Positions 24,041 to 27,781 of a DNA stretch of 64,000 nt are shown here, piece by piece; within the stretch, counting starts at the first letter, position 1, and every line of letters starts with the position of its first letter. The notes below the pieces were generated by a model. That model saw only the letters and a program-made list of their open reading frames with translations. It searched no databases and was not told where the DNA came from. Origin of the DNA: Nitrospinaceae bacterium (GTDB taxonomy: Bacteria > Nitrospinota > Nitrospinia > Nitrospinales > Nitrospinaceae). The stretch is taken from NCBI GenBank assembly GCA_965237905.1, contig OZ250172.1:2461805-2525804 (forward strand). The letters are read 5' to 3'. A program made the translations under genes and the position numbers.

Positions 24041-25735
24041 ATGAAATGGAGCTCCGAATTGAGTCCCGAAGAACACGCCGCACCGACCAACTTCATCCAT
24101 AAAATCATCGAGGAGGACCTCGCCGCCGGCAAAAACGACGGACGCGTTCACACGCGCTTCCCGCCGGAACCCAACGGCTACCTGCACATCGGCCACGCCA
24201 AATCGATCTGCCTCAACTTCGGCCTCGCTGAGGCGTTCGGCGGACAATGCAACCTGCGCTTCGACGACACCAACCCGGTCAAGGAGGAAGAAGAGTTCGT
24301 CCAGTCCATTAAGGAAGACGTGAAGTGGCTGGGCTTCGATTGGGCCGACCGCGAATTCTACGCCTCGGATTATTTCGGCCAGCTCTACGAGTGGGCAGTC
24401 CAGCTCATCAAGGACGGCAAGGCGTACGTCGAAGACCTCAGCGCCGACGAAATCCGCCAGTACCGCGGCACGCTCTCGGAACCGGGCCAGAACAGCCCGC
24501 ACCGCGACCGCCCCGTCGAAGAAAATCTTAATCTGTTTGAGGATATGAAAAAGGGAAAATTCCCCGACGGGGCGAAAGTCCTGCGCGCCAAAATCGATAT
24601 GGCCTCGCCCAACCTGAACCTGCGCGATCCGGTGCTGTACCGCATCCTGCACGCCGAGCACCACCGCACGGGTTCCAACTGGTGCATCTACCCGATGTAC
24701 GACTGGGCGCACGGGCAGTCGGACAGCGTCGAGAACGTCACCCACTCCATCTGTACGCTGGAGTTCGAGGACCACCGCCCGCTCTACGACTGGTGCCTCG
24801 ATACCCTCGGCGTGTTCCATCCCCGGCAGTACGAGTTCGCGCGCCTCAACCTGACGTATACCGTCCTCAGCAAACGCAAGCTGTTGCAGTTGGTGACGGA
24901 GAAAATTGTGAATGGATGGGATGATCCCCGCATGCCGACGATTTCGGGATTGCGAAGGCGCGGGTTCACGGCGTCATCGATCCGCGAGTTCTGCGAGCGT
25001 ATCGGCGTCGCCAAAGCCAACAGCACGGTCGACCTCGCCCTCCTCGAATTCTGCCTGCGCGAGGAGTTGAATAAAACCGCGCCGCGCGTCATGGCGGTGC
25101 TGAAACCGCTCAAGGTGGTGCTCACCAATTACCCGGAAGGGCAGGTCGAGCAGTTGAAAGCCGAGAACAATCCGGAGGACCCGGAAGCTGGGAGTCGGAC
25201 GATGCCGTTTTCGCGGGAGTTGTATATTGAGCAGGAAGATTTCATGGAAGACCCGCCCAAAAAATTTTTCAGGCTCGCGCCGGGGAAGGAAGTGCGCCTG
25301 AAGCACGCCTACATCATCCAATGCGAGGAAGTGATCAAGAATAAAAAGGGAGAGATTACCGAACTGCACTGCACCTACATTCCCGAAACCAAGACGGGCG
25401 AGGCCAACGCCGGCATGAAAGTCAAAGGCACCCTGCACTGGGTCTCCGCCCAGCACGCGTTTACGGCCGAAGTGCACTTGGTCGATAACCTGTTCACCGA
25501 GATCGAACCGGATGCGATCGAAATCCCCGGCAGTCTCAATCCCGACTCACTCAAAGTGCTGACCGACTGCAAACTCGAACCCAGCCTCAAAGACGCCAAG
25601 CCCGGCGAGCGGTTTCAGTTCCTGCGCATGGGCTATTTCATCGCCGACGCTGTTGATAGCAAACCCGGCAGCCCCATTTTCAATCGCACCACCCCCCTCC
25701 GCGACACCTGGGCCAAAGTCCAGAAGAAGGGGTAA
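24041..25735 (+). CDS. glnS: Glutamine--tRNA ligase
   Basis: HIGH motif in [12 protein letters not shown] and class I Gln/Glu-tRNA ligase blocks throughout the 564 aa. Confidence 0.95.
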
Positions 25736-25895
25736 GGTTAAATGGAGTGCCTTATTAATCACCAAACCTTCAATATAAATCATGCGTATCCCAAATTTCT
25801 TTTTGGGATAGATGTAGCCTATTAGGGATGTGTTTACGGACAAAACACGGATAATTTTGCGGATCAAAGGTGGGCACTCATAAATCGGCTTGGTT

Positions 25896-26855
25896 CTACA
25901 GTTTGTCTGTATACTCCTTTAATTTAGTCATGATTTCATCAAATCCAGGCTGGGTTTTATAGTAAAGAGCATTTGTATTTTGGAAGGCCTCCTCGTATTG
26001 TTTACGGGTGGTTGGGTCGTTTAAGAAAAAAGCTTCATTTTCTGCAATAAGAGGGTTATCGCTGGAACGGAAACGTTTCTTCTTATGAGCCTGATACTCG
26101 GCCGTTCCAATGAAATTCTGGACCTCTGGCTCATGAAGCAAGCAGTAAACATCATAGTAGTGACGCATGAAATTATCCGGAAATGATTCGTTTTCCTGCT
26201 GGGTACGGTATTTGGTGGAAATGGTTTGTAGCTTTTCCACTAGTGTATAGCCTGGATGATAGCAGGGGACTTCTTTAGCGCGGTTATCCACTACCTCCAC
26301 CTTGTCCGCTGCATAATCATAGGCCCATGAACTGATGTCTTTGGATATATTCGGTGCTATATCATCAAACCCTACTTCCAGCAAGATGCCATCCTTTAAG
26401 CCGGTCAAAGGGCCTGCCATGTTTTTGTAGTTCAAGCGGATTCCACCACTACGATATTTTTCATCGTCGTATTCTTTATCGCGCCAGACTTTTTCGATTC
26501 CGTCGATGGTAATGGTGTTCGCCAACCAGTCATAAAAATCTTCCCGACTTTTACAATGTGCAGTCTTATTCTGGTTACGACCAATCTTTACATTCATGCT
26601 TACAGGTGGTTGAATATGGATATCAATATCCTCTGAAAAGCGGTTGATGATTCCATATCCCTTGGAAAGGGAGGTGCCACCTTTAAGCTCAAAGGTTAGG
26701 CTCATCTGTTGTAATTCGTACAGGCAATGCATGATCCAGTAATCTTTCTCTATAAGAGCTGGATCAATGGAGTGTTCCTCACCGACAATGCGGATCAGAT
26801 CGGGGAAGTTTGTATGATTATGAAGGTAGTTATGCAGCATACTGCAATTTAGCAT
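25896..26855 (-). CDS. AbiEii/AbiGii-family nucleotidyltransferase toxin (DUF1814), type IV TA / abortive infection
   Basis: KGGTSLSKGYGIINRFSEDIDI is the AbiEii nucleotidyltransferase motif. It overlaps the upstream AbiEi gene by about 10-25 nt. Confidence 0.75.
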   Translation of the reverse strand: MLNCSMLHNYLHNHTNFPDLIRIVGEEHSIDPALIEKDYWIMHCLYELQQMSLTFELKGGTSLSKGYGIINRFSEDIDIHIQPPVSMNVKIGRNQNKTAHCKSREDFYDWLANTITIDGIEKVWRDKEYDDEKYRSGGIRLNYKNMAGPLTGLKDGILLEVGFDDIAPNISKDISSWAYDYAADKVEVVDNRAKEVPCYHPGYTLVEKLQTISTKYRTQQENESFPDNFMRHYYDVYCLLHEPEVQNFIGTAEYQAHKKKRFRSSDNPLIAENEAFFLNDPTTRKQYEEAFQNTNALYYKTQPGFDEIMTKLKEYTDKL

Positions 26856-27426
26856 CCCCCAGCGCTTCGGCAAAGAATTTCCTTGCTCGTACCCCACCAT
26901 ACTGACGTACTGCCCTTAAGAGTGCTTGTCTGTTAGCGGATGTAGCCTTTTCCTTTACTCGCTCCATCACCTTAGCCTGATTTTCTGCTAACTGTTCCAG
27001 ATTATTCACGAGATCAACTAAAAGGAATTCATGGCTGAGCGATTTCGGGAAATGAGGTTTTACTCGGAAGTCAAATACGCGCCCGCCTAGCTTAAAGCGT
27101 CCATGCCGTTTGTTATTATAAACAACGGTTTCATTGTAAAGTTGCGTTGTCCCGACACTCAGCGTGTTATAGGCATTGGCTGAGGTCAGAAGAAACCGGT
27201 TGTCTTTCAAAAAAGCCTCGACTAGTTTTTCATCTTCTGCCGGGGCCTCACCAAAGGCGGTTTTCTTCGGGCAGTAATAGAGCCCGCCGGAAAGCTTAGT
27301 CAGCGTTCCATCTTCTTGCAACTGCCGTAAATGACGGTCCACGGCATTCGACCAATCCGAAAGTTCGGCTCGCCGGTACACCCGTCCGGGGCGTAGATGT
27401 TTTTTAACTTCGTTCAATTTTGACAT
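26830..27426 (-). CDS. AbiEi-family antitoxin / transcriptional regulator
   Basis: 198 aa. It lies immediately upstream of the AbiEii gene and overlaps it, and the N-terminal region is AbiEi_4-like. Confidence 0.6.
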   Translation of the reverse strand: MSKLNEVKKHLRPGRVYRRAELSDWSNAVDRHLRQLQEDGTLTKLSGGLYYCPKKTAFGEAPAEDEKLVEAFLKDNRFLLTSANAYNTLSVGTTQLYNETVVYNNKRHGRFKLGGRVFDFRVKPHFPKSLSHEFLLVDLVNNLEQLAENQAKVMERVKEKATSANRQALLRAVRQYGGVRARKFFAEALGDAKLQYAA

Positions 27427-27669
27427 GGCTGTTTACCTCGCTTTCTAATATAGCCAAAAACTAGAGAAATAGCAAGTATTTTTATTTAAAAATCATGCAA
27501 ATTATTCAAAAGATACAAATATTTCAATAAATTAGAGATATTTAATTAGTTATAAATATTCCCTTTGAAAAGTAACCTAGCTTTAATATTAGAATTTGGG
27601 ACAAAAACCATGGATGTTTAAGAAGGTATTTATGTGCAGGAAATTGTATTTGTAAGGCAAGAAGAGGGT

Positions 27670-27781
27670 GGGGTTGACAGCCGGATGGGCTACTTCATCG
27701 CCGACCAAAAGGACAGCAAGCCCGGCTCCCCCATCTTCAACTGCACCACCCCTCTCTGCGACATCTGGGCCAAGGTTCAAA
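27670..27781 (+). pseudogene. Displaced 3'-terminal fragment of glnS (last ~35 codons, about 80% nucleotide identity to 25624-25735)
   Basis: Direct alignment within this window. Confidence 0.8.

Follow-up and report, generated by a model that had tools for sequence, protein, structure and literature searches.

The interval between the convergent genes for glutaminyl-tRNA synthetase (glnS, plus strand) and glutamyl-tRNA synthetase (gltX, minus strand) in the genome of a Nitrospinaceae bacterium (assembly GCA_965237905.1, contig OZ250172.1, positions 2,461,805–2,525,804 of the forward strand) holds an AbiE toxin–antitoxin cassette together with orphaned 3′ ends of both synthetase genes. These 64,000 nucleotides (nt) are the window analyzed here, and coordinates given without a locus name refer to it. 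For glnS and gltX alike, an intact gene is followed by foreign DNA and then by an orphan 3′ end that belongs to a different allele. The reading that we prefer, and in which we place roughly even confidence, is that the interval is an integrase-free hotspot that would grow by homology-anchored illegitimate recombination. A previous, sequence-only reading had described the glnS side of this arrangement and had ascribed it to site-specific integration of an AbiE islet into the 3′ end of glnS; as detailed below, much of the anatomy that it described holds, but the evidence argues against that mechanism.

Anatomy of the glnS–gltX interval

The stop codons of the two synthetase genes lie 3110 nt apart, within the region 24041–30270. 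The GlnS sequences closest to that of the window come from Nitrospinota/Nitrospinaceae, and for comparison we used eight loci of close relatives (L001 and L163–L169; GlnS 87–92% identical at the amino acid level, glnS 83–93% identical at the nucleotide level across the gene) as well as loci of more distant Nitrospinaceae. A further contig, L170, shares both its glnS protein and its cargo with L169. From glnS to gltX, the elements follow one another in this order:

24041–25735, plus strand: glnS, intact, with Pfam tRNA-synt_1c (E = 7e-112) and both anticodon-binding domains
25625–25735, plus strand: copy A, the working glnS end (last 36 codons and TAA), 85–88% identical to the glnS ends of the eight relatives
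25736–25895: spacer of 160 nt from the glnS stop to the abiEii stop, with a hairpin (TATCCCAAA-N6-TTTGGGATA) at 25787–25810
25896–26840, minus strand: abiEii, predicted nucleotidyltransferase toxin of 314 amino acids, motif GGTSLSKGYGIINRFSEDID intact
26830–27426, minus strand: abiEi, predicted antitoxin and transcriptional regulator of 198 amino acids, overlapping abiEii by 11 nt
27447–27501, minus strand: promoter-like site of abiE (TTGCTA-17-TATATT), overlapping a 30-nt block at 27472–27501 (candidate operator)
27502–27681: AT-rich segment of 180 nt (~30% GC) that ends at the remnant junction and has no match in any fetched locus
27682–27792, plus strand: copy B, the displaced glnS 3′ remnant (36 codons and TAA), with R>C twice, T>I and K>E
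27793–27862, plus strand: putative old downstream flank of glnS, with a degenerate copy of a terminator hairpin and then a terminator-like hairpin at 27830–27856
27863–28141, minus strand: p92, an accessory gene of 92 amino acids and the innermost cargo, between both remnants
28277–28450, minus strand: flank downstream of the gltX remnant, colinear with the functional-gltX flank in L163
28451–28595, minus strand: displaced gltX 3′ remnant (47 codons and its own TAA), 89% identical over 124 nt to the functional gltX end
28596–28845, minus strand: 250 nt from the functional gltX stop to the gltX remnant, with a Cys-rich open reading frame (ORF) of 50 amino acids and a palindrome at 28611–28642
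28846–30270, minus strand: gltX, intact, convergent with glnS, the repeated part at 28891–29014

The glnS start annotated in the source is probably at 24059, giving 558 amino acids; the protein P0121 is 100% identical over these 558 residues.

Two glnS ends of different allelic origin

A repeat search identified one 112-nt direct repeat of the glnS end (25625–25736 and 27682–27793, 79% identity). Over the coding part, copies A and B, counted with the stop codon, match at 88 of 111 nt and share an in-register TAA; the 21-mer ATGGGCTAYTTCATCGCCGAC is found at exactly two places in the window, where 0.00 occurrences are expected by chance. The duplicated glnS end with its TAA that the sequence-only reading reported is therefore real, but its placement at 27670–27781 is about 12 nt too far to the left.

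Copies A and B are different alleles from the pool of this clade that diverged under purifying selection. They differ at codons by 12 synonymous and 6 nonsynonymous changes, corresponding to a nonsynonymous divergence (dN) of 0.144, a synonymous divergence (dS) of 0.869 and a dN/dS of 0.17, which indicates that most of the divergence arose while both sequences served working genes. When the 23 nucleotide differences were polarized on the eight relatives, 7 proved to be derived in B (4 of them C>T), 7 were derived in A, and the other 9 were polymorphic within the clade. Moreover, copy B is 82–87% identical to the glnS ends of the relatives, yet only 79% identical to copy A. These comparisons bear directly on the possibility that the glnS 3′ end was tandemly duplicated on site, that the downstream copy decayed, and that AbiE was inserted between the two copies later. 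Such a history would account for the shared orientation of the repeat, but we regard it as extremely improbable and reject it: B keeps the state of the relatives at the seven sites derived in A and is nearer to the relatives than to its supposed sister copy, and the low dN/dS at a dS of 0.87 is that of divergence between functional sequences. The sequence-only reading had named a duplicated end without the island in related genomes as the sign of an ancient local duplication, and we searched for one accordingly; no glnS remnant was present in any of the eight close relatives or in the loci of more distant Nitrospinaceae that were searched. These comparisons indicate that one of the two glnS ends arrived horizontally from another member of the same clade.

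Copy B is decaying after its displacement. Its translation has two Cys, an Ile and a Glu in place of the residues R, R, T and K, which are invariant in all GlnS relatives examined. The changes specific to B, in the remnant itself and in the adjoining flank (27793–27822), show a strong excess of C>T and G>A (CGC>TGC twice, ACC>ATC, and a CCCC stem that has become TTTT), a pattern that fits GC-to-AT mutation pressure on unselected DNA. This decay also affects how the divergence of the two ends can be read. The sequence-only reading had equated it with the distance between donor and recipient, but the full 21% overstates that distance, as 7 of the 23 differences arose in the remnant alone, 4 of them at invariant residues; the true value would be nearer 14%.

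The DNA behind copy B fits the view that B is the old resident glnS end. The 30 nt that follow it match, in register, the terminator hairpin behind glnS of L001 (18/30, reached in 0 of 5000 shuffles, p < 2e-4) and that of L166 (16/30, p = 4e-4). The flank that follows copy A (25736–25895) showed no significant similarity to the glnS flank of any relative; a match to L164, suspected from a frameshifted protein tail, was dismissed because the alignment was not significant. Taken together, the separate allelic status of A and B, the decay of B and its native-type flank bear out the geometry of a substitute 3′ end upstream and a displaced remnant downstream. The end sequences themselves do not decide which is native, since a 111-nt comparison of A, B and the eight relatives was star-like, with about equal distances. 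A sliding comparison of window-specific glnS changes against the same relatives showed a mild 3′-ward rise and no clear breakpoint.

A second displaced end on the gltX side

A mirror-image remnant is present on the opposite side of the interval; it falls outside the coordinates of the sequence-only reading and alters the interpretation. Positions 28277–28595 are homologous to the gltX 3′ end and downstream flank of L163 (82% over 322 nt), and the repeat search aligned 28472–28595 with 28891–29014 in the functional gene, the stop codon of the remnant lying at 28451–28453. Relative to the functional end of the window, the remnant has a dN of 0.034 and a dS of 0.435, and it is closer to the functional gltX ends of L164 and L169 (92.6% identity) than to the gltX end of the window itself. 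It has no obviously damaging changes and is for that reason probably younger than the glnS remnant. The native-type flanks on both remnants make the middle block look like an older, complete glnS′–p92–gltX′ interval.

The functional gltX of the window differs from its relatives in the last ~60 nt (residues after ...GKQKTVE), which are of a different type. Directly behind its stop codon lies the Cys-rich ORF (MRPMTLCPVALAVGCEKCPIFKACPLK...; 28667–28819, minus strand), which has a strong ribosome-binding site. A 66-nt remnant of the window-type gltX end is found in L169 beside the same small ORF (L169 11116–11259), which suggests that gene end and ORF travel together. Remnants of gltX begin at different distances from the stop codon: 145 nt in the window, 96 nt in L165 and ~66 nt in L169. 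In L165, a 34-nt hairpin element separates the remnant from another 25-nt piece upstream, and L169 has further inner gltX fragments beside its CMD gene. Three boundaries in three genomes argue against a fixed attachment (att) core, which would give one. An assembly artifact as the source of the remnants in the window was rejected, given that the copies are 11–21% apart and lie within what appears to be a 3.09-Mb contig.

Two side observations concern elements within these remnants and between them. The ~34-nt hairpin element (CCCCTCTT-NNTA-AAGAGGGG-NN-GGGGTGATT..TAG) stands behind the glnS stop in two relatives, with copies at L166 9680–9715, L001 4729–4765 and L165 14364–14400 (minus strand) and a degenerate copy in the window at 27796–27822; within the gltX remnant of L165, it has replaced 42 coding nt. 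This small element is possibly mobile or recombinogenic. The combination of hairpin and GGGGTGAT was considered as a dispersed repeat and discarded, being present in only two or three loci. As for p92, the protein had no Pfam or NCBIfam match and a weak PADLOC match to Cas2 (E = 0.003); members of its family turn up sporadically in distant phyla, some of them labeled "SinR family" and one with a Cas2 Pfam match. Upstream of p92 are a near-perfect 16-nt inverted repeat (28176–28191 and 28227–28242) containing TTGACA, an 11/12 sigma-70-like promoter on the minus strand (28329–28357), and a plus-strand terminator-like hairpin at 28255–28284.

Gene turnover between glnS and gltX in related genomes

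Synteny around the interval is kept, upstream with genes for DUF420, HmuY, CCG/Fer4 and PMT/TPR proteins and downstream with gltX, genes for small proteins, and a response regulator with a GAF histidine kinase. The contents between glnS and gltX differ in nine of nine genomes, and several are of defense type (AbiE, PDC-S41, and sets of methyltransferase and Vsr genes). The relatives carry the following:

L163: AF_1680 and a 175-amino-acid protein
L164: helicase of NERD/Schlafen type, a match to PADLOC candidate PDC-S41 (E = 6e-257)
L165: three unknown genes, an N6/N4 methyltransferase and CMD
L166: unknown protein of 413 amino acids
L167: methyltransferase-like protein of 607 amino acids
L168: Dcm methylase, HATPase, a 317-amino-acid protein and Vsr
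L169: HNH-like protein, CMD and an ORF of 47 amino acids
L001: short contig, whose 459-nt downstream stretch matches none of the other cargoes

The interiors are all low in GC (35–47%), and in L071, a more distant relative, no more than 84 nt separate glnS from gltX. The interval is thus a gene-turnover hotspot, rich in defense genes and without visible mobility genes.

In L164, glnS (7727–9464) is frameshifted in its last 35 codons and gltX (11448–12852) is split in two; both are probably assembly or sequencing errors in that metagenome assembly rather than pseudogenization. The motif TTARCCACAGAT(G/A) occurs three times in the window (3638, 7503 and 10216, minus strand; 0.34 expected), each time in intergenic DNA, and one of these copies is followed by CACAGATG-like repeats. 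In the relatives, sites are found at L165 9750, L166 9713, L001 4776 and L169 11106, three of them at the glnS-proximal edge of the variable region. We considered the motif as a recombination site at hotspot edges and rejected it, as it is a dispersed intergenic motif that is absent from the hotspot of the window.

The AbiE cassette

The segment between the two glnS copies (25736–27681) measures 1946 nt and has a GC content of 42.1%, against 58.8% for glnS, so that the description of a roughly 1.9-kb, AT-rich and compositionally foreign segment encoding AbiEi and AbiEii was accurate. AbiEii matches Pfam PF08843 (E = 2.4e-27, 96.9 bits against a cut-off of 22.5) and, over its full length, PADLOC AbiEii (E = 6e-73); its true start is an internal Met, giving 314 amino acids as in homologs. 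The motif GGTSLSKGYGIINRFSEDID, at residue 54, fits the catalytic nucleotidyltransferase motif GG[ST]...RxSxD[IL]D, a pattern shared by 120 of 120 homologs. AbiEi matches PADLOC AbiEi PDLC02234 (E = 1.9e-89), and in Pfam matches only DUF6088, at threshold. The two genes form one operon with abiEi directly upstream. The 30-nt block overlapping the promoter-like site is conserved ahead of abiEi in over 25 unrelated loci from metagenomes and is a probable operator of abiE.

With ORFs, motif, overlap and promoter block all intact, the cassette is predicted to be an intact type IV toxin–antitoxin and abortive-infection module, presumably kept for phage defense or by addiction. By analogy with its family, AbiEii would be a GTP-binding nucleotidyltransferase toxin, relatives of which modify tRNA acceptor ends; AbiEi would neutralize it and repress the operon, and phage infection may free the toxin and thereby abort the infection. 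AbiE is reportedly treated as a type IV toxin–antitoxin and abortive-infection system in the work of Dy et al. in 2014 and Hampton et al. in 2018, and in the MenT work of Cai et al. in 2020. The module in the window resembles this system in being bicistronic with abiEi first, in its overlap and intact DUF1814/AbiEii motif, and in having a conserved block at the position expected for the autoregulatory operator. It differs in that its AbiEi is a strong match to a PADLOC subfamily but only a threshold match to Pfam.

The AbiE pair itself is ordinary, and modules of its subfamily are widespread. A tblastn search with AbiEi gave 77 matches across 80 metagenome loci and two earlier AbiE loci. To survey the context of the closest AbiEii homologs, we considered 89 other AbiE loci (80 from metagenomes, 6 viral and 3 found by look-up), Nitrospira sp. 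M1 and a 1.9-kb contig among them; neither glnS nor a glnS fragment stood beside AbiE in any of them.

Recombinase searches and the case for site-specific integration

The glnS side does display the signature that suggested an integrase, namely direct repeats of the 3′ end of the target gene (25625–25735 and 27682–27792, 79% identity). In that scenario, an element of a tyrosine or serine recombinase, with a 111-nt glnS-like attP, would have integrated at the 3′ end of glnS; its integrase would since have been deleted, or would act in trans on what is now a cis-mobilizable remnant, leaving AbiE as the surviving cargo. DNA of foreign composition lies between the repeats, the functional gene has been restored as far as its stop codon, and the repeat begins with a stretch identical at 22 of 24 nt. 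Partial copies of the target and degenerate remnants are also known traces of integrative elements, the older of which are displaced inward by newer arrivals (10.1101/2020.12.28.424599).

Several observations nevertheless make this scenario unlikely. As the sequence-only reading had noted for the islet, no integrase-like ORF is present between glnS and gltX, and neither a recombinase nor a fragment of one was found there in the window or in the eight relatives, that is, in nine hotspots. Elsewhere in the 64-kb window, ten integrase-sized ORFs gave no match to integrase families, in a search that was not exhaustive. The unit itself spans only 1.9 kb. The same signature recurs at gltX around a cargo of 250 nt, with the variable boundaries described above; AbiE was never linked to glnS in the 89 other loci; and the att-like sequence had 0 matches in scans of viral contigs. 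The proposal of site-specific integration finds no support here, and the locus cautions that not every duplicated gene 3′ end around foreign DNA is an integrase att signature.

A model of sequential 3′-end displacement

In the integrase-free model that we favor, cargo would come on DNA of a related strain that carries the 3′ part of a synthetase gene together with neighboring genes. Homologous recombination inside the conserved synthetase gene would anchor the incoming DNA, and its far, non-homologous end would be joined illegitimately just inside the last 60–150 nt of the resident gene. The incoming fragment would thereby supply a working 3′ end, and the resident end would be pushed inward as a dead remnant. 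Applied to the window, glnS end A and the AbiE cassette would have displaced glnS end B on the left, and a gltX end with the 50-amino-acid ORF would have displaced the older gltX end on the right. The older core, B′–p92–gltX′, would remain in the middle with its native-type flanks, newer material having been added from both outsides. A circularized fragment entering by a single homologous crossover could yield the same product. On the gltX side, the breakpoints differ between events (145, 96 and ~66 nt).

This model should be weighed against several points that speak against it. Only one event is available on the glnS side, so that there is no recurrence of its boundary to compare, and the repeat there opens sharply at its best-kept stretch, as an att core would. 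Within glnS, the stretch before 25625 shows no sign of a recombination breakpoint. The boundaries of the gltX remnants could have been shifted by later deletions, and in this genome the integrase search, which was not exhaustive, covered the 64-kb window. Finally, homology-facilitated illegitimate recombination is rare in experiments (PMC5361080).

The same process could also have run with the opposite polarity. Copy A and AbiE would then be resident, and a block consisting of the glnS remnant, p92 and the older gltX end would have been imported, anchored in gltX and joined illegitimately at its far end upstream of abiEi, so that the remnant would be donor DNA. The C-terminus of the A type (ADAVDS...) is indeed common to the closest GlnS relatives P0122, P0123 and P0126, no breakpoint is visible at 25625, and the segment between the remnants resembles one colinear unit with native-type flanks at both ends. 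However, the imported gltX end must have been functional and then itself been displaced, which leaves the number of events equal, and the innermost position of the oldest and most decayed piece is explained more simply by two additions from outside. We consider this version unlikely, and our own assignment of polarity is tentative.

A further extension of the favored model, in our view quite unlikely, is that the substitute ends are a working part of how the cassettes spread, the last 60–150 nt of an essential synthetase gene acting as a built-in homology arm. If this were true, it would amount to a recombinase-free, "gene-end-guided" mobility, or to dependence on an unrecognized trans-acting enzyme, and convergent pairs of essential genes would be self-renewing landing pads.

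Comparison with known systems

The "minimal mobile elements" of Neisseria are a case of integrase-free exchange between conserved core genes. More generally, mobile elements are absent from many hotspots, whose neighboring core genes have undergone recombination (Oliveira et al. 2017, PMC5635113), and core defense hotspots have been described in Pseudomonas (PMC10250203). The glnS–gltX interval resembles such hotspots in its conserved flanks, its genome-specific and defense-enriched cargo and its lack of a recognizable mobile element, with exchange thought to proceed by recombination in the flanks. A plain double crossover is scarless, however, whereas here partial duplicates of both flanking genes would record events with one illegitimate end.

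Displaced 3′ ends in effector–immunity arrays of type VI secretion systems (T6SS) and in Rhs loci have been attributed to homology-facilitated illegitimate recombination (PMC5361080); that paper cites Jackson 2009, Prudhomme 2002, Meier & Wackernagel 2003 and de Vries & Wackernagel 2002. C-terminal displacement in Rhs, contact-dependent inhibition (CDI) and T6SS loci likewise involves a conserved 5′ part as the anchor, an incoming 3′ end with linked genes and an old end orphaned downstream; repeated events give nested arrays, and no integrase is involved. In contrast, the displaced ends described here belong to the essential housekeeping genes glnS and gltX, the new end has the same function instead of bringing a new toxin domain, the orphan lacks an immunity partner and is left to decay, and both sides of a convergent pair are affected.

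Genomic islands and integrative elements in the 3′ ends of tRNA or protein genes offer a third comparison, among them tycheposons, which carry scattered partial tRNAs (10.1101/2020.12.28.424599). Direct repeats of the target 3′ end, a restored functional copy and older material pushed inward are common to these islands and to the interval described here. The differences are that no integrase or integrase fragment is present in the nine hotspots, that the gltX boundaries vary, and that one of the "elements" measures 250 nt.

Other features of the region

An Rfam search of 25500–29000 gave nothing near the threshold of any family. Upstream of glnS lie tandem PMT_2/TPR glycosyltransferase-like paralogs (20620–22251 and 22266–23918), the number and type of which vary among the relatives; L166 has none and L168 has two, separated by a radical-SAM gene. 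This stretch is a second variable spot, on the opposite side of glnS.

Meaning of the displaced ends

AbiE, integrase-free hotspots and 3′-end displacement in polymorphic toxin loci are all already known. What is somewhat unusual is the presence of nested displacement scars on two essential housekeeping genes that flank one small defense hotspot, in a clade of environmental importance. On the reading favored here, the locus would be a clean and datable record of the entry of defense genes without mobile-element machinery at the site, in which a displaced end of a housekeeping gene stamps each acquisition and its decay orders the events. The Nitrospinaceae are major marine nitrite oxidizers, and the glnS–gltX interval would pinpoint a hotspot of their genomes from which strain-specific defense genes may be harvested.

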